From: a virus
Strand: one strand, 5' to 3'
Virus genome (UHGV): UHGV-0240017
DNA: 64,000 nucleotides
Positions 1 through 53,988 of this stretch are shown here, piece by piece. The position numbers were made by a program, and so were the translations under genes. The notes beneath the pieces are model-generated. The model saw only the letters and a list, made by a program, of their open reading frames with translations. It was not told the origin of the DNA and did not search any database. How positions within the stretch are numbered: position 1 is the first letter of the stretch; the number at the start of each line of letters is the position of its first letter.

Positions 1-436
1 TAGTTATACGTAACCTGTTTCCTATTCCGTTCTGTACTGCGGTTCCACCTGCACCGCCTGGCGAGTTAGAACCACCGTTGCCTCCTCTGCCGTATACTGT
101 AACCCCAGGATTGATAACGAGTGTAATGGAGGAGTTCGGTAGGTCGCCAGGGAACTCTAAACAAGGAACTCCGCTACTATAAGACACTAAATCCCCCGTA
201 ATAGTCACAACGACAGCAGTAGAGCCTAAAGAACGTAAATAGTTAATAAGAGTATCCTTATTATAGCTATGGTTAGCACCAATAGAATAATGGACCTCTT
301 TTGATTTTCCCGCCAATTGCGACATCCAGCCTGGAACCGGCACACCAAGTGTGCGCATCGCGCCAGACATCCAATCGTTACCAGTTTCAGCTTTTGCTGA
401 AGAACCAATCCAACCACCTACGCCGACAACTGCCAT
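1..436 (-). CDS. T2-type gp38-like tail fiber adhesin, N-terminal part (gene runs off window start)
   Basis: ATG at 436..434 overlaps the fiber stop (TAATG); frame open to position 1. Own translation MAVVGVGGWIGSSAKAETGNDWMSGAMRTLGVPVPGWMSQ...TITGDLVSYS...GRGGNGGSNSPGGAGGTAVQNGIG matches the conserved gp38 N-terminal domain and first glycine-rich motif as I recall them. Not in ORF track because truncated. Confidence 0.55.
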   Translation of the reverse strand, partial: MAVVGVGGWIGSSAKAETGNDWMSGAMRTLGVPVPGWMSQLAGKSKEVHYSIGANHSYNKDTLINYLRSLGSTAVVVTITGDLVSYSSGVPCLEFPGDLPNSSITLVINPGVTVYGRGGNGGSNSPGGAGGTAVQNGIGNRLRIT

Positions 437-3400
437 TAGGATCTTCCTTTAATTTCGTTAACCTCTTGACGCAACGCTTTCATACCCTCTACTAACAGCG
501 CAATAACGCCATTGTAGTTTAGACGTAAACGTTTTTCGCCTGAAATGGCATCATCATCCTCAGACACAAGTTCAGGTAACGCTTCTAATGCGTCCTGAGC
601 AATTAGACCTACAGAAGTCTGCCAGCCGTCATCAGGATGCTGAATTTCGTACAAATAACCAGTTAGTAACTCTAACCGATCCAAAGCCTTATCCAGCTTC
701 ACCAGATTACGTTTGTTACGACGGTCAGAACGAATCTGTACGTCGTTAAACGAACCGTTACCGTTGCCAGTAACGTTATGTCCAAAGTTTACTTGACCGT
801 TAGAATTATTAAAAGACAACGGACGTAATCCGTTCCAGGAACCCGCTGCGGCTTGTCCGGCGTCGGTTACTAGGAAATAGGTATTGGCACCATCGTTACG
901 TAAAATAAAACCGTAGGTACCGTAAGCGATTCGAAAATCAGGGTACTTGGTGGCCAATTTACCGTTAACGGTTAAATCACCGCCTATAGTACCGCCCCCT
1001 GACGGTAACGCGCCCACTTCCGCAGCAGTTGGCTTGTTTCTCGTATTGTAAGCACGACGCCAGCCTGGTGAGTATCCATCGCCGTTAAATACGTAGATAA
1101 ACTCCGCATTAGTGAGTGCTCCGCCGACGCTCGTCGTTGTGGCGGTCGTTATACGGATCGTGTAGTTGTTTGTGCTGTTGCCGTTACTAATGACTTCTAT
1201 AACGGCCCCAGCTAACGGAATGACACCACAACCCGTCTCGCTGTGAGGTATGGACGCACTAGCGGCATAAGCCCATGCACAGCGAGCAACCCACGATCTT
1301 GTGGTAAATGCGCCGTTATTTTTCAATAACGTCACTAGCTGTGCTGTAGTTATTGCACCGCCATCAGCGCCAGTTTCTAACCAACCACTAGGTGATGCCG
1401 GACAACCTATTTCGGCTGGCCCTAACGATATATTTCTAGTGCCGTCAAATGCGATACCGTTAATGGTTCTTGCAGTTTGCAACTTCGTTGCCGTGGCCGC
1501 GTTTCCGGTGGTCGACTGATTACCCGTTTGGTTTACGCCAGGTAAGTTGATGTCTTTGGTACCATCAAAAGCTACGCCACCTATATTTCGCGCAGTCTGG
1601 AGCTTAGTCGCTGTCGCAGCATTCCCCGTAGTCGATTGGTTACCGGTTTGGTTTACACCAGGAAGATTAACGTCTTTTGTCCCATCGAAAACCACACCGC
1701 CGATCTTACGTGCGGTTTGTAACTTAGTAGCGGTCGCCGCATTACCTGTTGTATTCTGGTTGCCTTGCTGGTTAACCCCCGGTAAATTGATATCCCCAGT
1801 ACCGTCAAAGGAAACGCCGCCGATTCTGCGAGCGGTTTTCAGTTTCGTCGCGGTAGCGGCGTTGCCGGTAGTATCTTGATTACCTGTGGTATTTACACCA
1901 GGAATACTATCACGGGCAGTATAAACTTGTGCCCAATCTGACCACGGCGCATCCGCTGTATCACGTCGACTACGAATATAAACGGGTGCGTGTGCACCGC
2001 TCGTGCCCGACCAACCAATTAACAGCTCACCTTCACCTAATGCGGCAGAACCACCCAAATGTAGCAAGTTACCATAAGCGGTCGGATAACCGTTATTGTA
2101 AACTTCGTACATCTGAATACCAGGCGTACCTTTGTTTGAACCAGTTAGTGCAGTAACCCGACCACGACCTACCAGGGTGTTGATATTGATGTCAGCAGAA
2201 CCATCGAATCTCACACCGTTAATATTTCTGGCGGTTTGAAGTTTAGTGGCTGTACCAGCATTACCCGTGGTGTTTTGATTGCCCTGTTGGTTAACACCTG
2301 GGAGGTTAATGTCACCACTACCGTCGAAAGCGACTCCACCAATTCTACGTGCGGTCTTTAATTTCGTTGCGGTTGAAGCATTGCCGGTTAACTCGCCTGC
2401 TAACCCTTTTGCAAAGGTCTGTTTTTCTGCCCAGGTGTGTGCTGCATTCAATACAGGCATCTGTCGTGGCGTAATCGTACGACTACCTTTCTCACCGGCG
2501 ATACGTACTGCAAAGAATCGATAGTTGGCAGTAGACACCGTACTACGCCAAACCAACATACTCCGGCCTGAGGATGCGCCATCTGATGGACCAACCAGAA
2601 TGCTAACTAAGTTACCGTCAATAACACCCCAATCCATTCCCGCAGGAATGTTTTTCATGGTGTTAAGTGGTGTACAGATTAACTCACCCGGTTTAAAGTC
2701 ATAGGTTTGCCAGTCTAAAGGATCAACATTCGCACGTTCACCGCCGATACCTAATACCAACGGAAGCGAATACGATGTGAAAACCTCACGCCAATCGCTC
2801 CAAGCGTTACCCGTACGGATACGTTGGAATTTACGACCTTTAGTTTCTGTACCCGTGCCGTATGTAGTATAATTCTGTTCGACCCCTGTACCGTCTAAGC
2901 GTAAGGTAACTTCACAAACACCTAATATGGTTTCACCAGAAGAACCGGTAAGTGGACCGTTAGTTGCTTCACCAGTGACACTGAAACGTCCCGGTTTAAC
3001 GAGATCGTTAAAATTGGCTTTAAAGAAAGCACCGTCAGTCTGATAACCAACCTGAATCCAATCTTCCCATTGCGGGTTTGATGAATCCCACGTTGCGGTC
3101 AAACCACGGACATACATTGTACCACGACGTGTGGTGTATCGTTGCAACCGTCCGAAAAGACCACCTTCCATTACTTCTAGTACGCCTTGCGCGCCACCAC
3201 CTTCTTCAGGGTAATGTCTGCTAAAAACAGCCAGCGAACTGCTTGAGTTTCGCCAGTTACCCATATGCTCAGCGCCACCCAAACTGTTCAAGTCTATAGA
3301 GGTAGATAATGGACGTACACCAGTAGTTACCATTCTCCACGGTGACCAGGGTCCATTGGCACCATTCCACGCGCCACTCAGCATACGGTTGTACACGTTA

Positions 3401-4878
3401 CCATTACGGCAGGTAAAACGCTGTGCGCCACTGTAGTTACCGGCTTTATACACTTCCAGATAACCGACTGCACCGTCTTCTGGGAAATGTTTTGCCATCG
3501 ACGCATTGGTTGACGTCGACTTAGCCCACGTTCCTGTGTAATTGGCATCAGGAGCAAATGTGTTAATATCAGCATCTACAGGCATTTCACCACGGAAACG
3601 CAGATAGGTGTCAGGAGACAGACCGATATTGCGAGCAAACGTTTCTTTATCTGGGATATCAGCGCCGTTAGAGTTTTTCTGTAACGCGCCATTCGCTTTA
3701 TCTACAGTAGCTTTTAATCCCAAGAAATTGATGATATCCGCAGTTGACCCTTTCGCTAACAAGGATCTAGCCGTTTCTGTAAAATCCGTTAATCCGACTT
3801 TATTACTGCCGGTGAAATACATGAGTTTATTTGCCGCTGTGGTGACTGCGGCAATAGCGGTGAGTAACGGACTGAGAGGTTGTTTCTGCGCAAGTTCCCC
3901 AGTAATCGTTGTTGCGAAGTTAGGGTCATTACCTAACGCCTCGGCTAATTCCGCTAAGGTATTTAACGTCTCGGGTGAAGAACCAACCAGTTCCGCAATC
4001 GCGTCACGCACCCAGGCCGTTGTGGAGATGCTCGTGTCGTTCGAGTCCTTCGGGGGTGTTGGGGATGACGGTTTACCCGTAAAATTCGGCGAATGTTTAT
4101 TGGCTTTTAACTGTAATTCGTCATTCAGCTGTTTAACCGTGGACGGTGTGGCAGCCTCAGTCACGGATTCGCTAGTCAGTGTATCGTTAAGTTTAACGAT
4201 ACCTTTACCGGTCGTACTAGCGTCGATTAAGCCCTGTGCAGCGATTTTCTCCGCACGTAAGGCAGCTGACTCCGAACGTGTTGCTGCGCCTTCTGAACTT
4301 TCTTTATCTTTCGCGACCTGTGCAGCAATCTTCTCCACTGCGCCCTTACTGGCCTCAACTGAAGCTGCGGTATTTGTGACACTGGTAGCGGTTTGTTGAA
4401 CTTGTCCGGCCTGTTGCGTAACCGTTTCTGCTTTCTTAGTTACATCAGCCGCTGTAGCCGTCACCGATTGTTCACTTGTGGCGACAGCTTGGGCTTTCTC
4501 ATTTACTGATTGAGAAACAGTATCTACGGCCGTTTTCGCTGCTAAAACCTCAGCGTGTTTTTTGTTAACCTCCGCAGTTTTAGTGGCGACGGTTCCCGCT
4601 TGCTCATTAACTGTGGAAGCTAAAGTGGTAGTCTGTTGCTTCGCTGTTTCTGCTAAATCTTTAGCTTTCGTAGCTTCTGTTGCGGACTGTTGTGATTTGG
4701 CCGCAGCCGTTTGTGCATCAGCAACCGCACTTCTGACGGTGTCAATGTCCGCAACGATCTCGCGGACTGGTAACTTATAATCTTTTTCGTCTTTCGAAAA
4801 AAGTAAAACGCCTTCACCGATATCCCCGGTGTACGGATGTAAGTCGTGTAAACGTATTTTCTTTACCGCTTTAGCCAT
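436..4878 (-). CDS. long tail fiber protein (gp37-like) with C-terminal intramolecular chaperone / peptidase S74 domain
   Basis: 1480 aa; Ala/Thr/Gln-rich coiled-coil N-terminus; conserved fiber segment NTLAELAEALGNDPNF...KQPLSPLLTAIAAVTTAANKLMYFTGS; six GNxxTTGNAATATKLQTAR repeats; C-terminus SDRRNKRNL...LRLNYNGVIALLVEGMKALRQE typical of the self-cleaving S74 chaperone. Confidence 0.85.
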   Translation of the reverse strand: MAKAVKKIRLHDLHPYTGDIGEGVLLFSKDEKDYKLPVREIVADIDTVRSAVADAQTAAAKSQQSATEATKAKDLAETAKQQTTTLASTVNEQAGTVATKTAEVNKKHAEVLAAKTAVDTVSQSVNEKAQAVATSEQSVTATAADVTKKAETVTQQAGQVQQTATSVTNTAASVEASKGAVEKIAAQVAKDKESSEGAATRSESAALRAEKIAAQGLIDASTTGKGIVKLNDTLTSESVTEAATPSTVKQLNDELQLKANKHSPNFTGKPSSPTPPKDSNDTSISTTAWVRDAIAELVGSSPETLNTLAELAEALGNDPNFATTITGELAQKQPLSPLLTAIAAVTTAANKLMYFTGSNKVGLTDFTETARSLLAKGSTADIINFLGLKATVDKANGALQKNSNGADIPDKETFARNIGLSPDTYLRFRGEMPVDADINTFAPDANYTGTWAKSTSTNASMAKHFPEDGAVGYLEVYKAGNYSGAQRFTCRNGNVYNRMLSGAWNGANGPWSPWRMVTTGVRPLSTSIDLNSLGGAEHMGNWRNSSSSLAVFSRHYPEEGGGAQGVLEVMEGGLFGRLQRYTTRRGTMYVRGLTATWDSSNPQWEDWIQVGYQTDGAFFKANFNDLVKPGRFSVTGEATNGPLTGSSGETILGVCEVTLRLDGTGVEQNYTTYGTGTETKGRKFQRIRTGNAWSDWREVFTSYSLPLVLGIGGERANVDPLDWQTYDFKPGELICTPLNTMKNIPAGMDWGVIDGNLVSILVGPSDGASSGRSMLVWRSTVSTANYRFFAVRIAGEKGSRTITPRQMPVLNAAHTWAEKQTFAKGLAGELTGNASTATKLKTARRIGGVAFDGSGDINLPGVNQQGNQNTTGNAGTATKLQTARNINGVRFDGSADININTLVGRGRVTALTGSNKGTPGIQMYEVYNNGYPTAYGNLLHLGGSAALGEGELLIGWSGTSGAHAPVYIRSRRDTADAPWSDWAQVYTARDSIPGVNTTGNQDTTGNAATATKLKTARRIGGVSFDGTGDINLPGVNQQGNQNTTGNAATATKLQTARKIGGVVFDGTKDVNLPGVNQTGNQSTTGNAATATKLQTARNIGGVAFDGTKDINLPGVNQTGNQSTTGNAATATKLQTARTINGIAFDGTRNISLGPAEIGCPASPSGWLETGADGGAITTAQLVTLLKNNGAFTTRSWVARCAWAYAASASIPHSETGCGVIPLAGAVIEVISNGNSTNNYTIRITTATTTSVGGALTNAEFIYVFNGDGYSPGWRRAYNTRNKPTAAEVGALPSGGGTIGGDLTVNGKLATKYPDFRIAYGTYGFILRNDGANTYFLVTDAGQAAAGSWNGLRPLSFNNSNGQVNFGHNVTGNGNGSFNDVQIRSDRRNKRNLVKLDKALDRLELLTGYLYEIQHPDDGWQTSVGLIAQDALEALPELVSEDDDAISGEKRLRLNYNGVIALLVEGMKALRQEVNEIKGRS
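1450..1905 (-). repeat. in-frame tandem repeats (~117 bp, 39 aa, about 4 copies) inside tail fiber gene
   Basis: Visible DNA periodicity; protein repeats TARxIGGVxFDGTxDINLPGVNQxGNQxTTGNAATATKLQ. Confidence 0.8.
2165..2420 (-). repeat. second block of the same tail fiber repeats (about 2 copies)
   Basis: Same 39-aa unit (TGNASTATKLKTARRIGGVAFDGSGDINLPGVNQQGNQNTTGNAGTATKLQTAR), separated from the first block by a ~120-aa non-repeat domain. Confidence 0.7.
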
Positions 4879-5085
4879 GATATTTAATTCTCTATCGGGA
4901 GCTAAAAGATCTGGGGAGGTACTTTACCCCCCGCCCAATATTTTTATAAGCGGATTATTATACTGGTTTTAATCCATCATCTTCTAACGTGAAAGTGATG
5001 CCCAACTCCGCGTTCTCATGATCTGGGTTTACTAAGTCTTGATAAACGTTTGCTTTGGCCTCCATTACCAGAAAAACCGTCAAGT

Positions 5086-5532
5086 TCATGTAGCCGGGTT
5101 TTCTTCAGCGGAGTCTCCATCTGGAACCTCAAATGTAAGAACAGCATCGTCACCAATACAGAAGATTGCATCTTCTTCGTTTGCTAATGCCCGTTCAGTT
5201 GTATCAAATAACGTCACCATAAACGCATTCATCCACGCAGGAGAATCGTCAGCAACGTTGACAGCAATAGGATCGTTACCTAAAGTGATATCTGAAGCAC
5301 GTAAATCCTCGGGTTGTAAGTTCGTTCCGCAGAATTCATTTACAACACCTAAAATGTCACGAAGGTTGTCTTCAGTACCATCTAACGAAATCAAAATAGG
5401 TTCAGACGCTAACACTTTGTCCGCATCCAAACGGTCGTAATAAACAACTACAGAAGCACCATCAGGTTTCCTGATTTTTGTAATCTCTGTCAGTGTGTTA
5501 CGACGCGACGTAGTCGGGGACAGGTTTGCCAT
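5086..5532 (-). CDS. hypothetical acidic protein
   Basis: ORF track 5086..5682; likely start at internal Met (MANLSPTT...) because the ORF 5' end runs into the upstream terminator; acidic C-terminus. Confidence 0.4.
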   Translation of the reverse strand: MANLSPTTSRRNTLTEITKIRKPDGASVVVYYDRLDADKVLASEPILISLDGTEDNLRDILGVVNEFCGTNLQPEDLRASDITLGNDPIAVNVADDSPAWMNAFMVTLFDTTERALANEEDAIFCIGDDAVLTFEVPDGDSAEENPAT

Positions 5533-5660
5533 AGTGTTGCTAATACGAATTTCGCTTAGAGACAACCGTGAACCGTTATCGTGGTTGATTAAAGCGACCA
5601 CCAATTCGGCTGAGGACAGACTTAAATCAGGTACGTATGTGGCCACTATAGCCTCCCAGA

Positions 5661-5708
5661 TCAAAAAAAAAATAAAAAACATCTACCGCCCATAGAATCG
5701 GGCGGTAG
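5661..5708 (-). terminator. intrinsic terminator
   Basis: Hairpin ctaccgcc-catagaatcg-ggcggtag followed on the minus strand by a long U-run (plus-strand A-run 5661-5679). Confidence 0.7.
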
Positions 5709-5742
5709 ACAGTCATTTTACAGCTAAAAATCTAAGTAGTTA

Positions 5743-15820: not shown

Positions 15821-15858
15821 AAAAAATAAAATATAGGTACCACCGTTGGGTGGTACCT
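15818..15858 (-). terminator. intrinsic terminator
   Basis: aggtaccaccgttgggtggtacct stem followed on the minus strand by a U-run. Confidence 0.7.
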
Positions 15859-15864
15859 AAGCGG

Positions 15865-16488
15865 TTAGTTTGCTAAAATGTGCGTAACAATCTCTGCGGC
15901 TTTCAAACGGTAATCGTCATTCTGCGTTACCGGTAATAACGTGTGAAGACAACCGCCTTCTGTTAAGATGTGGTGTGCGAAACGATAATGGTCGCGTAAG
16001 CCATCCCAACATTGGTTGTCTTTTAGATACTTAACAGTAAGTACCTCGTCATCCCAATTCTTACCTTGTTCTTCTACGCGTTTCTTAAATCGCGCTAACG
16101 CTGTTGGGTAATCAACATCTGTCCAAACATAAAGGTCAGGAGTGTGGAAATGACGTGTTAGCTTACGTTGGAAAACCACGTCCTTACCATCTGTCCCCTG
16201 ATAAACGATCGTTGAAGGACAGAAGCGATCGAAAATAACGACATCGTACTCGTCAACAACATGGTCTAACGTGTGAAGGAAATCATCACACATTGCTTCA
16301 GCAATTTTTGTTTTCGAAGCAGACTGTACAACCAAGCTACGTGCACGAATGCCTGCCTCGGTTTCAGATGTCGGATGGTTCCGAACGCAAACTTTTAATC
16401 CTGCGGATTCCAACATCGCTTTTACCATTTTACACAACGTCGATTTTCCAGAAAAATCAGGACCATCAATAGACACTGTCTTAAGCAT
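15865..16488 (-). CDS. tmk: thymidylate kinase-like dNMP kinase
   Basis: P-loop GPDFSGKST plus downstream DRF...S..VYQG signature matching the Tmk DRY..S..AYQG motif. Confidence 0.65.
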   Translation of the reverse strand: MLKTVSIDGPDFSGKSTLCKMVKAMLESAGLKVCVRNHPTSETEAGIRARSLVVQSASKTKIAEAMCDDFLHTLDHVVDEYDVVIFDRFCPSTIVYQGTDGKDVVFQRKLTRHFHTPDLYVWTDVDYPTALARFKKRVEEQGKNWDDEVLTVKYLKDNQCWDGLRDHYRFAHHILTEGGCLHTLLPVTQNDDYRLKAAEIVTHILAN

Positions 16489-36157: not shown

Positions 36158-38452
36158 TTACTTACCAGCAGCAGCTTTGCCTTCGCCAGCAACGTTACCT
36201 GCTACACCACCTTCGGTTTGTTTCTGACCGTTCTGTTCAACAGAAACATTGTAAGCCAGTTTTTCTTCAACCAGTTTGGTGATGCCTTTAACCCAGATCA
36301 GACCAGTGATCGGGCAGTGGCAGATGTGCGCGTTGCGCGGCTGTACGGCCAGCTCTTTAGAGGTAGAACCGTTACGCTGAATGTTGATGTTAGTAACCAT
36401 GATCGGAGACCAGAAGTGGTTACCCCAGTTCAGCACGTTGTAGGAACCATCGTCCGCAGTCGGAACTTTCAGGAACCATTGCAGACGACGAGTCCAGGAA
36501 CCGTCAGCTGCGTTGTAGATACGCCAGCGGTCATCGTTGGTGGTGATCACTTCGTATTCGTAGCGATCGCCCAGCAGACGTTGGTCACCTTGTACCAGCA
36601 GCAGCATGGATGCAGTCGGTTCGTCGGTTGCAATAACAACCTTCGGCAGAATGTCCGGATCGGCAGTGTACAGACGCAGCGCAGGAATGAAGCGAGATTC
36701 CTGGATAGCCTGAGTTACCTGATTACCGATACGCTGTACCAGGCCCTGACGAGCGTTGATCAGTGCATCTTTGGTATCCAGGGACTGTACAACTTTATCA
36801 ACGTTGTAGTCAGACTCTTTGAACCACGGAGCAACCCAGTGACGGCCCAGGCCACGAATGGCCGGTTTGTCCCACGGAGTGATCATGCTTGCAGCAGCGT
36901 TACGTACCGCTTCGGTGTAAGACAGCGTCTGAGTGATAGCCAGCTGTTCGTTACGGATGTTAACTGCGGAAATCAGGTCGTCCAGACGTTCGGTATCGTC
37001 GTATTCAACGCCAACCGGAGACTTGGTCAGAATCGGAGAACCGTATTGCAGCTTGTAGTTTTCTTGTTCCCAGATTGGGTCGAGCAGCAGACCCTGGGTA
37101 CGACGGTTTTCGTTGGTACGAGTACCATCGAAGCGCCAGCCGATCAGTTCAAGTTTCAGATTTTCCAGGACAGCTTTGCCGGTACCAGTCTTGATATCAA
37201 CTTTGTTACCGGTAGCGTCGTACAGACCTTCGATTTCCAGTTTGTGACCAGCAATGTCAACTTTACCACCGAACTGACCGGTAGTGAACAGAGACATGTT
37301 GATGGTGATCACGTAACGCAGAGTGTAGGAGTTCTGTTCCAGTGTTTTCAGAGCCGGAATAGCTTCGCCTTTCCAGTCGGTAGTTTTCGCGTTCAGAGAG
37401 AACGCAGTACGACGGAATTGCAGTACCAGCTCACGGCCATCACCTTCAGCAGGACGCTGGAAGGTTGCGAACTGCATGTCACGAACGTGCAGTTTAATGA
37501 ATTTACCTGCTTTTGCATCTTCAGCCGCTTTACGTACGGAAATCAGCAGGCTGCCCAGAGCACAACCCGGCGCGATTTCATCAGTTTCGTCGTAACCTTC
37601 GATGACGATACCCGGATGCGCAGACAGCTGGAACAGGTTCAGAGTGTCTTTAGCAAAACTCAGGTAGTTAGTCGGGTACGGAGGTACACGGCCCAGGCGA
37701 ACAGATTCGTTCGGTACCAGATCTTCGCTTACGAAGTATTCCGCGTTTTCACCGGTTTCCATTACGTAAGGAACGATGTTGATCGCTTCGTCCTGGAGAA
37801 CGGTGTGGTCAGTCAGCGCTTCGTGCAGGTTACGACGATGATCTTCAACAACATCTTTGCTCAGCAGTGCGTTCATTACACCACGAGAAACGGTGGTCAC
37901 TTTGGTACGTACGGTAATACCAACATCGTTGGTGTCAACAGTGATGGTCGGGAACAGAGTCTCAGCGAAACGAGACTGGGTTTCCAGAGCACGTACGTTC
38001 AGCGTCCAGGTCAGACCCAGGTTTTTGTCGTAGTCTTTGTTGGTGTAGTATTCCTGAGCGACAACCATACGCTCTTTGCCCCAGTCGCCGTTACCAGCTT
38101 GGGAACCAGGAATCGCAACGTCCAGGTTAAAACGGCTATGGAATTCTGGCTTAGCGTATTCTTGCGCTACTTTTTCTTGCAGGTCCATACCGTGACCAGC
38201 AGCACCCAGAATCATTGCAGAAGCAACTTCCGCAGCGTGGGACATTTTCTTACCGCCAGCAAACGCGTTTGCGTAGTGCTGTGCAGCATCGTCACGCAGG
38301 GTACCAAAAACTTTCGTGTTGCTACGTACAGACTCACCAGCAACGATGGTGTTCCACATTTCGCCAGCAGTGTTGTTACTAATGACGCTTTGTACCAGCG
38401 AGTTACCAGCTTGTACGAGTTTCTCCAGATTAGAGATTCGGGTATCTTTCAT
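36158..38452 (-). CDS. major capsid protein candidate (large jumbo-phage-type)
   Basis: 764 aa; extreme codon bias; strong terminator; A-x-E sites in the N-terminal ~150 aa (AGE, AAE, AQE); size matches phiKZ-like capsid proteins as I recall. A tail sheath is the alternative. Confidence 0.45.
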   Translation of the reverse strand: MKDTRISNLEKLVQAGNSLVQSVISNNTAGEMWNTIVAGESVRSNTKVFGTLRDDAAQHYANAFAGGKKMSHAAEVASAMILGAAGHGMDLQEKVAQEYAKPEFHSRFNLDVAIPGSQAGNGDWGKERMVVAQEYYTNKDYDKNLGLTWTLNVRALETQSRFAETLFPTITVDTNDVGITVRTKVTTVSRGVMNALLSKDVVEDHRRNLHEALTDHTVLQDEAINIVPYVMETGENAEYFVSEDLVPNESVRLGRVPPYPTNYLSFAKDTLNLFQLSAHPGIVIEGYDETDEIAPGCALGSLLISVRKAAEDAKAGKFIKLHVRDMQFATFQRPAEGDGRELVLQFRRTAFSLNAKTTDWKGEAIPALKTLEQNSYTLRYVITINMSLFTTGQFGGKVDIAGHKLEIEGLYDATGNKVDIKTGTGKAVLENLKLELIGWRFDGTRTNENRRTQGLLLDPIWEQENYKLQYGSPILTKSPVGVEYDDTERLDDLISAVNIRNEQLAITQTLSYTEAVRNAAASMITPWDKPAIRGLGRHWVAPWFKESDYNVDKVVQSLDTKDALINARQGLVQRIGNQVTQAIQESRFIPALRLYTADPDILPKVVIATDEPTASMLLLVQGDQRLLGDRYEYEVITTNDDRWRIYNAADGSWTRRLQWFLKVPTADDGSYNVLNWGNHFWSPIMVTNINIQRNGSTSKELAVQPRNAHICHCPITGLIWVKGITKLVEEKLAYNVSVEQNGQKQTEGGVAGNVAGEGKAAAGK

Positions 38453-38464
38453 TTGTTTAATACC

Positions 38465-38989
38465 TTAATGAGATAAATGACATGCGTATAATTGCGTCAG
38501 CACTTCGTTAGCGGCAAACTGCGTTGAGGTACTGAAGCAGTCATCCACGACGCGAGTCTTGGTACGCATATATTTAAAAAGTTCTGCGCAGAACATCTTT
38601 TTCGCAGCGTGGTCTTCACCCGAAGAAAAACCCGAACCGGACTTCGCTTCTGCAAATGACGCCACAATCGTATCACCACGTTGAGTAAACACCCAACGTA
38701 CGCGACAAGGAATTGTTTCCCCATATAAATCGTCAAGGGAAACCTTTTCGCCTGATTCGACCAGACGTAACACCTGATCATAATATTTACCTGGAAGCAC
38801 AGGCGGAGCCATCAGTGCTTTATAAATAGCAGAACGACTTACTTCAGGTAAGATAATAGAACTGAAACCATTCGGACAGTCATATAACCAGTTAAAGAAC
38901 CCTGCCTGGAGCAATTCTATACTTTTAACGGCAGCGCCTTTATCTATGTTAGGTTGAACTTCCCACGGTGGACTAAAACGAATTTGCAT
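38465..38989 (-). CDS. hypothetical protein
   Basis: 174 aa; stop lies 12 nt upstream of the capsid-like gene start. Confidence 0.55.
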   Translation of the reverse strand: MQIRFSPPWEVQPNIDKGAAVKSIELLQAGFFNWLYDCPNGFSSIILPEVSRSAIYKALMAPPVLPGKYYDQVLRLVESGEKVSLDDLYGETIPCRVRWVFTQRGDTIVASFAEAKSGSGFSSGEDHAAKKMFCAELFKYMRTKTRVVDDCFSTSTQFAANEVLTQLYACHLSH

Positions 38990-51245: not shown

Positions 51246-51293
51246 AAAAAAAAAAGAAAAGAGAGAACCACCCCATTACAGGGTGGTTCTCTT
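51246..51293 (-). terminator. intrinsic terminator
   Basis: gagagaaccacc-ccattaca-gggtggttctc preceded on the plus strand by an A-run. Confidence 0.7.
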
Positions 51294-51309
51294 ACTAAAC
51301 AATCAGGGA

Positions 51310-52575
51310 TTATTTAGATTTTTCGTAAGCGCCGATACCGGCACTCAGGTAACCGTTCAGACCACCGGCCAGGTGTTTCTGAGTAGAAGCAATAACCTTC
51401 TCACCCAGAGACAGACCCTGGTTAACGCTGGTGATGAAACGACGGGCAGCACGTACACCTTCGGTCAGTTCCGGTTTTTCGTCGATCTTAACTTTATCGA
51501 CTTCTTTCAGGAGCTTATCGATATTATCTTCAAAGGTTTTACGCGCGCTTTCGACTTTACGATAATCCTGAACGTTTTTCTCAATCTGTTTACCCACTTC
51601 GTTGAAGAGGGCATTAATTTTGGCCAGTTCGCCAACAGACGGAGTTTTCACGCTAGTTTCAACGCTGTTTTCAGCTTCAACAAAGGTGGAGCTGAAGCCG
51701 CCTTCGTTGTCATACTCGGTTTTCACCGCCATGTTACCGAGCTTGAAGTTTTGGAGACTGTCTTGTTTGGACAGTTCGGTAAAGTCGGCTTTCAGTTTTT
51801 CAACTTTAACACCATTACCTTTGGTAACATCGGAAACCACTTCAGCAGCTTTAGCGGCCATGGCAGGCATCTTAGCGCTATAGAACGAGGAGACCTGGTT
51901 AAGGATACCTTTCAGTTTCGGAATATTATCGCCGACGAACTTGCCGTCGATAGACAGAGACTTGATAAAGCCACCAGAGATCTCATCTTTCTTCTGTTTG
52001 CCCAGCTTACGAATAACTTCATCGTATTTCTTAGCACGCGCCTGAATAGATTTACCCTGGTTGTGGAATTTCAGCCAGCGATCTTTCAGTTTGCGGCCTT
52101 GTTCTTTCAGCCAATCGAGAATACGGCCCAGGAAGGCTTTGATGTCTTCCCACAGGGATTCACGAGCAACCTGACGACGGTTACGAGAACCGTAGGATTC
52201 GTGAGCAACAGAAGAACGGTGTTCGAAGTTCCAACGAGAACGGATAGATTCCTGAGCAACGTCCAGCGCAGTCGCAGCGTCGTCCGGCATATCTTCTTCG
52301 GCGTCCATCGGTTCTTCACCGTCTTCGCCAGCACCTTCACCGTCAGCAGCAGCCTGAGCTTCATCCAGAACATCCAGCTGAGCGTCAGTTTCGTCGCCGT
52401 CTTCTGCCAGCAGTTCAGCGTCAGCGTCCAGAGCTTCGATCGGTTTGGTGTCATGCTCGATATCGGCCAGAGTGCCTTCTACGGATTCTGCTGGCAGTTC
52501 GATGCCGTCTGGAACTACAGTAGAAGTAGACTCCATAGACTCACGAGCAATTTTGTTTTTGTAGAAATTCGCCAT
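51310..52575 (-). CDS. acidic head/inner-body-type protein candidate, paralog 1
   Basis: Start set to MANFYKNKIARESMES to match the paralog; repeated A-x-E motifs (ARES, AHES, AQES); C-terminus GLNGYLSAGIGAYEKSK; strong codon bias. Confidence 0.5.
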   Translation of the reverse strand: MANFYKNKIARESMESTSTVVPDGIELPAESVEGTLADIEHDTKPIEALDADAELLAEDGDETDAQLDVLDEAQAAADGEGAGEDGEEPMDAEEDMPDDAATALDVAQESIRSRWNFEHRSSVAHESYGSRNRRQVARESLWEDIKAFLGRILDWLKEQGRKLKDRWLKFHNQGKSIQARAKKYDEVIRKLGKQKKDEISGGFIKSLSIDGKFVGDNIPKLKGILNQVSSFYSAKMPAMAAKAAEVVSDVTKGNGVKVEKLKADFTELSKQDSLQNFKLGNMAVKTEYDNEGGFSSTFVEAENSVETSVKTPSVGELAKINALFNEVGKQIEKNVQDYRKVESARKTFEDNIDKLLKEVDKVKIDEKPELTEGVRAARRFITSVNQGLSLGEKVIASTQKHLAGGLNGYLSAGIGAYEKSK

Positions 52576-52657
52576 TTTAAGCTTTTCCTCTAAGGGGAAC
52601 AATACGTTCCCCTGATGATTTATTTCAAGAACTGTACGGAACTACGAATCTAAATGA

Positions 52658-53929
52658 TTATTTAGATTTTTCGTAAGCACCGATACCAGCACCCAGGTAG
52701 CCATTCAGACCGCTAATAACGGTGTTAGCAACATAGCTAACTGCGCGGTTCAGGGTCTGGTAGTTCTTAACAGACCAATCGGCAGCTTGACGTGCGTTAC
52801 GCAGGCCATCCCACTTGCTATCGTCTTTTTCGTTGTTCAGCGCCTTAGCAGCATTCTCAGCAGCCTGTTGCAGCTTCACGATTTCAGAATCGTAAGCACG
52901 GAAATCTTTCAGTACGGCTTCGAAGCCTTTACCGATTGCTTCCAGAGCAGAAGCAGCACCAGCCATTTCAGAAACAGACGGAGTTTTCACGTCTTTATCG
53001 TCAGAAGCGTCACCGGTGCTCATGAAAGCAATTGCGGTGAACTTGTGGCCGCCAGCCAGTTCTTTAGTACCAGCCTGAATGTATGCGTTGCCTGGCAGTG
53101 CCAGCAGTTTAGACGCATCGCCTTTTTCAAAATTCGGCAGAGAATGCAGTTTAGACGCTGCTTTACCGAACAGGTCTACAGGCTGATCGCCGCGCATTGC
53201 TTTGAAGGAATCGTCGTCACCCTTGCTCACAGCAGTTACAGCTTCACCGGCCTGTTTTTCCAGAGCACTGATGGAACCTTTAGCTTTACCAGCAGTAACT
53301 TCTTTCGCAATAGCGATAGAGCCAGCAGCATCGAATTTACCTTCGATAGACAGCTTGGTGATAAACCCGCCAGAGATTTCATCTTTCTTCTGTTTGCCCA
53401 GCTTACGCAGCATTTCCTGATATTTCTTCGCACGTTTCTGCGCGGTCTTACCGACGTTGAAATATTTCAGTTTCAGGTCTTTGATCTTCGCAATCACTTC
53501 TTTACAGAACTGAATGAAACGATCGTAAAGATCTTTCAGGGTTTCTTTCCAACCTTCCTGGGCAGCAGCAGTCATACCACGGCCACGACGATAGGATTCG
53601 CGAGCCAGTTTAGTACGTTCCAGGCACCAACGACGTGCGATGGATTCCTGTGCCACTTCGTGCAGGGCAACCGCTTCTTCCGGCATTTCTTCACCGTTAG
53701 CAACGGCTTCTTCCGCCTGTTCGATAGCGTCTTCAGTACGCTCGGTATCGGCAGCCAGGGTTTCACCGTCGGTTTCCAGCTGATCGAGCTGACCGTCGAT
53801 AGATGCTACGTCCGCAAGTTGGACGTCCAGGTTCTCTTCTGCCGGTTCAACGTTGCTGATACCGTCGATTACTTCATCGGCCGCTTCCATCGATTCACGA
53901 GCGGCGCGAGTTTTTGCGAAATTTGCCAT
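52658..53929 (-). CDS. acidic head/inner-body-type protein candidate, paralog 2
   Basis: MANFAKTRAARESMEA...; shared blocks RKLGKQKKDEISGGFI and GLNGYLGAGIGAYEKSK; last ~50 nt nearly identical to paralog 1. Confidence 0.5.
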   Translation of the reverse strand: MANFAKTRAARESMEAADEVIDGISNVEPAEENLDVQLADVASIDGQLDQLETDGETLAADTERTEDAIEQAEEAVANGEEMPEEAVALHEVAQESIARRWCLERTKLARESYRRGRGMTAAAQEGWKETLKDLYDRFIQFCKEVIAKIKDLKLKYFNVGKTAQKRAKKYQEMLRKLGKQKKDEISGGFITKLSIEGKFDAAGSIAIAKEVTAGKAKGSISALEKQAGEAVTAVSKGDDDSFKAMRGDQPVDLFGKAASKLHSLPNFEKGDASKLLALPGNAYIQAGTKELAGGHKFTAIAFMSTGDASDDKDVKTPSVSEMAGAASALEAIGKGFEAVLKDFRAYDSEIVKLQQAAENAAKALNNEKDDSKWDGLRNARQAADWSVKNYQTLNRAVSYVANTVISGLNGYLGAGIGAYEKSK

Positions 53930-53988
53930 TTCGTTTATTTCCTTTGGTTATATAACCCAATTACACGCCCCTAGAATGAGGGGCCCCC

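Follow-up and report, generated by a model that had tools for sequence, protein, structure and literature searches.

Few host-range devices of phages are understood as well, or reprogrammed as easily, as the pairing of a chaperone-cleaved tail fibre with a gp38 adhesin. A chaperone-bearing fibre with a separate gp38 is the paradigm of T2, T6 and S16 (2026 preprint), and T-even phages have been retargeted in published work by swapping gp38 or by substituting single residues. In S16 the fibre is cleaved at DLNVS^SDRRIKK (^ marks the cut), for the fPS Yersinia phages a cut at DVYIR^SDGRLKI is predicted, and the tryptophans of gp38 dock on a flat trimeric surface made up of the five residues that precede the cut (PMC7917993). 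Here we analyzed a stretch of 64 000 nucleotides (nt) of the virus genome UHGV-0240017 (in the following, the window). Its positions 1–4878 (minus strand) carry a tail fibre gene followed by the first part of a gp38-type adhesin gene, and a second adhesin gene lies beyond the window. We consider it probable that this region is the distal host-recognition module of the phage, composed of a chimeric fibre predicted to cleave itself and to be capped by gp38, and of a second adhesin that would compete with gp38. The core of fibre plus gp38 is secure, while the use of two tips is what we infer. The pairing of chaperone fibre and gp38, which an earlier note made from the DNA letters alone had pointed out, is not unusual: it is the canonical arrangement of T2, T6 and S16 and hence known biology. 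New with respect to the searchable literature are the presence of such a module on a chimallivirid jumbo phage by graft of a 42-residue anchor, and the tandem of two different adhesins together with a natural presence/absence polymorphism of gp38. Searches for literature on gp38 in jumbo phages, on dual or tandem gp38 adhesins and on SPN3US receptor-binding proteins returned nothing on this module.

The fibre is encoded by a single open reading frame (ORF; 436..4878, minus strand, stop codon at 436–438), whose translation contains both SDRRNKRNL... and ...LRLNYNGVIALLVEGMKALRQE. As the earlier note had stated, its 1480 amino acids (aa) end in an S74-type chaperone: Pfam places Peptidase_S74 (PF13884) at aa 1384–1438 with an E-value of 3e-10 and 40.7 bits against a curated cutoff of 22, and the C-terminus (aa 1339–1478) aligns with the tip of S16 gp37 (PDB 6F45_A), where NDVQIR-SDRRNKRNL of the window fibre stands against RDLNVS-SDRRIKKDI. 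From the alignment to S16 gp37 and other fibres we predict the docking tip and cleavage site ...FNDVQIR^S at aa 1378–1384 (727..747, minus strand), with the scissile bond between R1383 (730–732) and S1384 (727–729). Cleavage at this site is predicted to leave a mature fibre of 1383 aa and to release the intramolecular chaperone (IMC) as a fragment of 97 aa (aa 1384–1480; 439..729, minus strand), and not of about 130 aa as had been estimated before. The block GNGSFNDVQIR^SDRRNK is conserved in T6 gp37, PEi20 gp37, ECD7 gp37, the CMS-2020a fibre and all relatives of the clade described below; the pattern shared by the fibres of the window, T6, PEi20, CMS-2020a and ECD7 is (S/N)F(N/S)(D/N)V(Q/Y)IR^SD..(x)K. 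A Ser-Lys dyad (S-x4-K) at the start of the chaperone domain is known from work on endosialidase and T5 pb1. This spacing is present in the window fibre (S1384-D-R-R-N-K1389, aligned with SDRRIK in S16, SDSRLK in T6 and SDITLK in PEi20) and matches the endosialidase dyad, so that Ser1384 and Lys1389 form a putative Ser-Lys pair.

Just before the tip lies a trimerisation domain of the Gp34_trimer type (aa 1256–1355; 814..1113, minus strand; Pfam PF21446, E 6e-19), a region that matches the structures of T4 gp34 and Mu S. Within the shaft, a regular expression finds six copies of a T-even/P1-type repeat of about 40 aa (aa 832–1150; 1429..2385, minus strand), which start at aa 832, 872, 1005, 1045, 1085 and 1125 and follow the consensus GNAxTATKLxTARxIxGVxFDGxxDIxLPGVNQxGNQ. 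Pfam further reports Phage_fiber_2 at aa 221–261, and dozens of tail-fibre families are matched in PHROGs (e.g. phrog_6722 with E 6.5e-289). The N-terminus (aa 1–42, MAKAVKKIRLHDLHPYTGD...KDYKLPVREI; 4753..4878, minus strand) is an anchor peptide recognized by its likeness to SPN3US gp143 (58.5% identity over 41 aa) and Asesino gp140 (58% over 38 aa).

The stop codon of the fibre gene (TAA, 438–436) shares one base with the ATG (436–434) of the next frame, confirming the TAATG overlap reported earlier, and an AAGGAAG Shine–Dalgarno-like run is found 7–13 nt 5' of this ATG. From the overlap and the run, the two genes look translationally coupled. The second frame (1..436, minus strand) reads MAVVGVGGWIGSS...GRGGNGGSNSPGGAGG (also quoted as MAVVGVGGWIGSSAKAETGNDWMSG...GRGGNGGSNSPGGAGGTAVQNGIGNRLRIT) and holds the opening 145 codons of a gp38 adhesin gene of the T2/T6/S16 type, which has 257 in all (Pfam Gp38_N and GP38, phrog_2056), with no stop before the window edge. 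Inside the window lie the Gp38_N docking domain (aa 1–42, with W9 and W22), a linker and only the first of the glycine-rich motifs. As the earlier note had expected, the frame runs off the window: 112 further residues lie outside, and the complete gene (257 aa) is found on scaffold_3 of ENA ERZ28645711 (225 403 bp) at L004 14443–15216, where L004 denotes coordinates on the source contig region reaching beyond the window. Profile matches are strong both for the 145-aa fragment (Gp38_N 5e-16, GP38 6e-38) and for the full protein, which matches Gp38_N (E 1.4e-15), covers PF05268 from model position 1 to 218 of 218 (E 3.1e-67) and aligns end to end with the S16 adhesin (aa 7–255 with residues 5–247 of PDB 6F45_D, E 6e-50). 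W9, W22 and W37 are invariant with T6 gp38. The checks that the earlier note had named as able to refute it (profile matches of this product and of the fibre C-terminus, and an early end of the frame outside the window) thus come out in its favour. The product is hence gp38-like as had been proposed, and its naming as a T2-type adhesin holds for the family, which is that of T2, T6 and S16, but not for the closest relatives. The nearest gp38 proteins outside the clade, with 77–79% identity, are found in SSU5-like phage-plasmids (L015–L018; L015 shows 96% DNA identity to CMS-2020a CP053388.1), whereas T-even phages reach about 60–70%: the fragment shares about 70% identity with gp38 from many Tequatrovirus phages, and the full-length protein 60% with T6 gp38. 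The best INPHARED match to the glycine-rich head is the displaced gp38 of Krischvirus (76.5%); a check of Krischvirus for a second adhesin next to gp37 found only an unrelated small ORF after ECD7 gp37. The proteins are already in public databases; in Salmonella assemblies the NCBI pipeline labels this gp38 as 'receptor-recognizing protein'.

The second adhesin gene starts 17 nt after the gp38 stop (L004 15233–15736) and encodes 167 aa beginning with MGVASGWVGSSAKNETGEQWMSAAG... Gp38_N is its sole Pfam match (3.6e-20), and PHROGs assigns it to phrog_1121, 'tail fiber adhesin'. Both N-terminal tryptophans of gp38 are kept and the glycine-rich motifs are absent; the head is a beta-sandwich unrelated to the gp38 head, and a comparison with the PDB gave no sequence match. 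Proteins annotated as 'tail fibre adhesin' in Stx phages (P13374 group) and in CMS-2020a CP054387.1 share 60–65% identity with it, and in Stx prophages and CP054387.1 this adhesin type follows directly after chaperone-bearing fibres. By analogy to S16, T2 and T6 we propose that three fibre chains would trimerise with the help of the C-terminal chaperone, which would then release itself by a cut at R1383^S1384 (within ...NDVQIR^SDRRNK...). This would lay open the flat DVQIR tip, on which a single gp38 monomer would sit as a cap, held by the conserved tryptophans in Gp38_N, and gp38 would bind an outer-membrane protein, the likely kind of receptor, with the loops between its glycine-rich motifs. 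The second adhesin would probably compete with gp38 for the same tip, giving virions with two receptor specificities. As the PDB entry 6F45 holds three gp37 chains and one gp38 chain, we assumed one adhesin per trimeric tip, and competition is then the simplest model. A further-reaching version, in which a nucleus-forming jumbo phage uses one self-cleaving fibre with two unrelated, interchangeable adhesins and releases mixed tips from a single burst, we put forward only tentatively. If it were true, the natural presence or absence of gp38 would tune the host range across Salmonella, Shigella and E. coli.

Comparison with described phages shows which parts of this arrangement recur elsewhere. 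S16, T2 and T6 share with the window the C-terminal S74 chaperone of gp37, the motif (D/N)V.I(R/S)^SD..x.K and an adhesin gene directly 3', and their gp38 likewise joins a Gp38_N domain with conserved tryptophans to a glycine-rich receptor domain; both partners of the window align to 6F45. They differ in that the window fibre is a single chain of 1480 aa with an SPN3US-type anchor, on a chimallivirid backbone and accompanied by a second adhesin. No homologues of gp35 or gp36 flank the window fibre, which resembles the distal tip of a T-even fibre and is not a member of the jointed gp34-gp35-gp36-gp37 system. The closest relatives of the parts are SSU5-like phage-plasmids of E. coli (CP053388.1 and CP054387.1, both named Escherichia phage CMS-2020a; Cyrano), with 79% identity for gp38, 65% for the second adhesin and 55–75% for the distal shaft. 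They too have a chaperone-bearing fibre directly followed by an adhesin, but carry one adhesin type each, whereas the window clade carries both in tandem, and their virion type and fibre N-terminus are completely different. In the same slot, CP053388.1 (L061) has the glycine-rich gp38 and CP054387.1 (L010) the 170-aa type, which makes these two alternative alleles at one locus and a natural allele swap. Stx-converting phages (P13374 / phi191 / 75/02 Stx group) have a 170-aa adhesin with 60% identity to the second adhesin, and the end of the fibre before it has a chaperone domain 75–79% identical to that of the window; they differ as temperate phages of about 61 kb without a glycine-rich gp38. 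Two adjacent Gp38_N genes after a gp37 with a YIR^SD tip occur in the Edwardsiella phages PEi20 and PEi26 (Kanagawavirus) as well, although both copies, annotated as gp38, are of the non-glycine-rich type and the backbone is T4-like. In the searched literature we found no functional study of these tandem genes.

The backbone of the present genome is not T4-like, as the earlier note had supposed. The 764-aa protein of the window is the major capsid protein (phrog_3231), 79% identical to that of Erwinia phage Asesino and about 78% to that of SPN3US; over Seoulvirus and Erskinevirus the aa identity is 78–80%. From these sequences the genome can be assigned to an uncultured, SPN3US-related jumbo phage of about 225 kb within the Chimalliviridae. 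The genus is probably the proposed Bapsvirus, judged by the fit to its published size, synteny and hosts. This genus was proposed in Nat Microbiol 2025 from 247 genomes of approximately 220–249 kb, which belong to the Chimalliviridae, are syntenic with Seoulvirus at low nucleotide identity and were found in Salmonella, E. coli and Shigella assemblies; the paper describes the clade as rarely isolated in culture and leaves fibres, receptors, gp38 and adhesins unmentioned (PMC12768965). IMG/VR contains four close relatives (about 151–225 kb), and many more are present in Logan and NCBI. Near-identical fibre, gp38 and second-adhesin proteins are encoded on contigs of 218–227 kb in assemblies labelled as Salmonella enterica (many serovars), Shigella and E. 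coli. We note that the spread of the clade in such assemblies is consistent with the carrier-state idea (PMC12768965, bioRxiv 2024.12.31.630880). A megablast search of window positions 1–5000 against INPHARED phages gave no match, and the module is therefore without a close cultured relative at the DNA level. For a clade that is common in isolate assemblies yet rarely cultured, the module provides a concrete handle.

We compared the adhesin content of ten loci of this clade (window contig, L006, L007, L008, L013, L055, L022, L056, L057 and L058). In six of them (window contig, L006, L007, L008, L013 and L055) gp38 and the second adhesin are both present, and in the other four (L022, L056, L057 and L058) the second adhesin stands alone, 3–6 nt after the stop of the same fibre; gp38 alone was found in none of the ten. 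The boundary of this insertion or deletion falls within the last approximately 10 codons of the fibre, which reads ...MKALRQEVNEIKGRS before the stop when gp38 follows and ...MKSLRRELKELKEK when it does not. From the position of this boundary gp38 was gained or lost as a cassette that included the end of a chaperone domain. The second adhesin exists in the clade as two alleles of about 64% identity that are shuffled independently of gp38. Pairwise dN/dS values are 0.18–0.35 for gp38 (four genomes) and 0.08–0.26 for the second adhesin, and on these values both genes are under purifying selection and therefore maintained. The fibres of L008, L013 and L055 have a different, T6-like tip and chaperone (NFNDVYIR^SDARLK...), while the rest of the fibre is related and both adhesins are kept; the tip/chaperone block itself is exchanged within the clade. 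Tandem adhesins together with natural relatives that have or lack gp38 offer a ready comparison for alternative tips on one fibre.

Several observations weigh against the reading of a fibre with two competing adhesins. What we state on cleavage, trimer formation, the 3:1 stoichiometry and receptor binding is carried over from S16, T2 and T6, and by the same analogy we predict that either adhesin can dock on the tip of this fibre. The third conserved tryptophan of gp38 (in PGWMSQ) is replaced by Met in the second adhesin. A receptor cannot be assigned, since single substitutions are reported to switch specificity, as with the Q206L change from OmpF to OmpW. The closest characterised gp38 heads are those of the ECD7/RB49 type and of T6, and we rejected them as an unsafe basis for naming the receptor: the reported target of RB49 is OmpA, and close relatives differ in theirs. 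The fibre has a GC content of 48.2%, compared with a window value of 45.2 +/- 2.1%, and GC and GC3 profiles are not diagnostic of a foreign origin. Finally, gp38 of the relative L007 (18583–19221 in IMGVR_UViG_3300045988_078609) has only 212 aa instead of 257–260 in the others, owing to a 53-aa in-frame deletion in the glycine-rich domain between two glycine-rich motifs. In T6, engineered removal of one glycine-rich motif gave no viable recombinants; in view of this and of the L007 deletion, gp38 may be dispensable in this clade. The deletion itself possibly arose by recombination between repeats, and the function of the shortened protein is uncertain.

These points lead to the main rival explanation, that just one of the two adhesins functions in the virion, with gp38 either a recent passenger or the one that has taken over. 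The asymmetry among the ten loci, with gp38 missing from four and the 167-aa adhesin from none, fits a passenger, as does the damaged gp38 of L007. Moreover, the chaperone region of the fibre (aa 1360–1477) is 75–79% identical to the Stx-type prophage fibres, which pair with the 167-aa type, and the chaperone and tip are only 46–49% identical to the phage-plasmid fibres that pair with the glycine-rich gp38. Against this rival stand the purifying selection on gp38, its intact full length in five of six carriers, its translational coupling to the fibre gene behind a good ribosome-binding site, and the retention of its docking tryptophans. We therefore regard a single functional adhesin as unlikely and prefer the reading in which gp38 and the second adhesin share the fibre tip.

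The question of where the module came from can be addressed at the syntenic site of related phages. In SPN3US, the E. coli phage EC001 and Asesino this site consists of a DUF7941 protein, a 157-aa 'tail fiber protein' and a tail protein of about 1005 aa, and tblastn detected neither gp38 nor the second adhesin there, nor a fibre body or an S74 fibre. The window encodes the DUF7941 virion structural protein upstream of the fibre (5086..5646, minus strand; 186 aa in the contig gene call, with an alternative 198-aa version from 5682; Pfam DUF7941 5.6e-18, phrog_2935). SPN3US gp144-gp143-gp142 (Seoulvirus) and Asesino gp139-141 occupy the same position and share the DUF7941 protein (45–46% identity to SPN3US gp144 and Asesino gp139) and the anchor peptide. 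They differ in carrying the anchor on the 157-aa protein, followed by the ~1005-aa tail protein, without S74 domain or gp38, and the window retains only a scar of this pair. The likeness of the fibre to the 157-aa protein is limited to approximately its first 41 aa (MAKAVKKIRLHDLHPYTGD... in the fibre, MATVVKKKRLHELDSYDGD... in the SPN3US-type protein). The deletion scar of the SPN3US-type pair of 157 and about 1000 aa (4958..5120, minus strand; identified by reading the sequence and a motif scan) begins with a 34-codon remnant (METPLKKTRLHELDGFSGNGG..., also quoted METPLKKTRLHELDGF...) and ends with a 43-codon ORF that closes with ...ITFTLEDDGLKPV before its stop (also quoted ...LEDDGLKPV), matching the ...DDALKPEQ end of the lost gene. 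In L007 and L008 an intact pair of 170 and about 1000 aa is kept 5' of the long fibre, the genes ending in ...DVPLKPEQ and ...DDALKPEQ, and gene calls place the 1001-aa gene at the left edges of L055 and L056 too.

The body of the fibre points to other sources than the backbone. By tblastn, aa 232–1370 are 55–57% identical to P1 S, aa 388–859 (2302..3717, minus strand) are of the P2 gpH type with 61–63% identity to Peduovirus P2 and related prophages (E 0), aa 825–1378 are 74.5% identical to the SSU5-like phage Cyrano, and aa 372–1477 are 46% identical to gp34-gp37 of T6/PST. The fibre can thus be read as a chimera of a lineage-specific anchor, a patchwork shaft (P1 S, P2 H, Mu S and T-even gp34/gp37-type) and the IMC end. 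T-even phages have a GC content of about 35%, and the 48% of the fibre are unlike this value. The earlier note had suspected a horizontally acquired tip module, and the lack of gp38 and S74 fibre at the site in SPN3US, EC001 and Asesino supports it. Taken together, these comparisons give good support to a horizontal acquisition. Temperate enterobacterial phages are its likely pool, and the nearest donors seem to be phage-plasmids and prophages of a temperate kind, not T-even phages. The module would have been assembled by recombination with temperate enterobacterial phages and would have replaced or joined the ancestral SPN3US-type tail protein. Its graft by a 42-aa anchor onto a chimallivirid would mean that such a module can move across very distant virion architectures.

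The opposite history, in which fibre and both adhesins are ancestral to the jumbo lineage and were lost in Seoulvirus and Erskinevirus, we consider improbable. It would agree with the lineage-specific anchor, with the presence of the module (gp38 aside) in every clade member examined and with a GC content that is not clearly foreign. But the SPN3US-type pair is intact beside the long fibre in L007 and L008 and left its scar in the window, and therefore the SPN3US-type cassette is the shared one; the fibre segments are 55–79% identical to P1, P2, Cyrano and Stx-prophage fibres, far closer than the backbones are, and gp38 is an insertion or deletion with its boundary in the last fibre codons. 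Still less probable, indeed barely credible, is that the protein downstream of the fibre is an assembly chaperone, as T4 gp38 is for T4 gp37, and not a virion adhesin. In many database records homologues of gp38 do still go by the name 'distal long tail fiber assembly catalyst'; against this stand the full-length match to the adhesin families PF05268 and PF21721 and to the S16 adhesin structure, the intramolecular chaperone that the fibre already has, and the fact that T4 gp38 belongs to a different, Tfa-like chaperone family. Misassembly of a T-even-like fragment onto a jumbo-phage contig, conceivable for a metagenome scaffold, is effectively refuted, as the arrangement of fibre and adhesin recurs in at least nine independent assemblies of the clade, independent samples in IMG/VR, Logan and the NCBI isolate assemblies show the same gene order, the fibre begins with the jumbo-phage anchor, and at the level of megablast no T-even phage shows DNA identity.

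Beyond the module, the source contig carries a second cassette (L004 15835–18471, outside the window) composed of a DUF7941 paralogue (170 aa, 15835–16347) and a 706-aa protein with a SASA (sialate O-acetylesterase-type) domain and DUF6645. The anchor motif that opens the fibre also opens this 706-aa protein and the 170-aa protein of L007 and L008. The 706-aa protein probably serves as another receptor-binding protein, one with enzymatic activity; in relatives its place is taken by a protein of 206 aa. We read the locus as an array of cassettes, each consisting of a DUF7941 protein and an anchor-bearing receptor-binding protein, in which DUF7941 would serve as the socket for the anchor. Two strong hairpins followed by T-runs (window 5680–5711, minus strand, and L004 18475–18509) bracket the array from the DUF7941 protein to the SASA protein. 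As the former overlaps the 198-aa version of the DUF7941 protein, the 186-aa start at 5646 is favoured. A weaker hairpin lies directly before the fibre start (window 4914–4932, minus strand). A scan for sigma-70 promoters gave only background level, as expected since the phage has its own RNA polymerase. Long ORFs antisense to the capsid gene and other large genes (36218–38476, 51283–52593 and 52787–53974, all plus strand) are most likely non-coding shadows.

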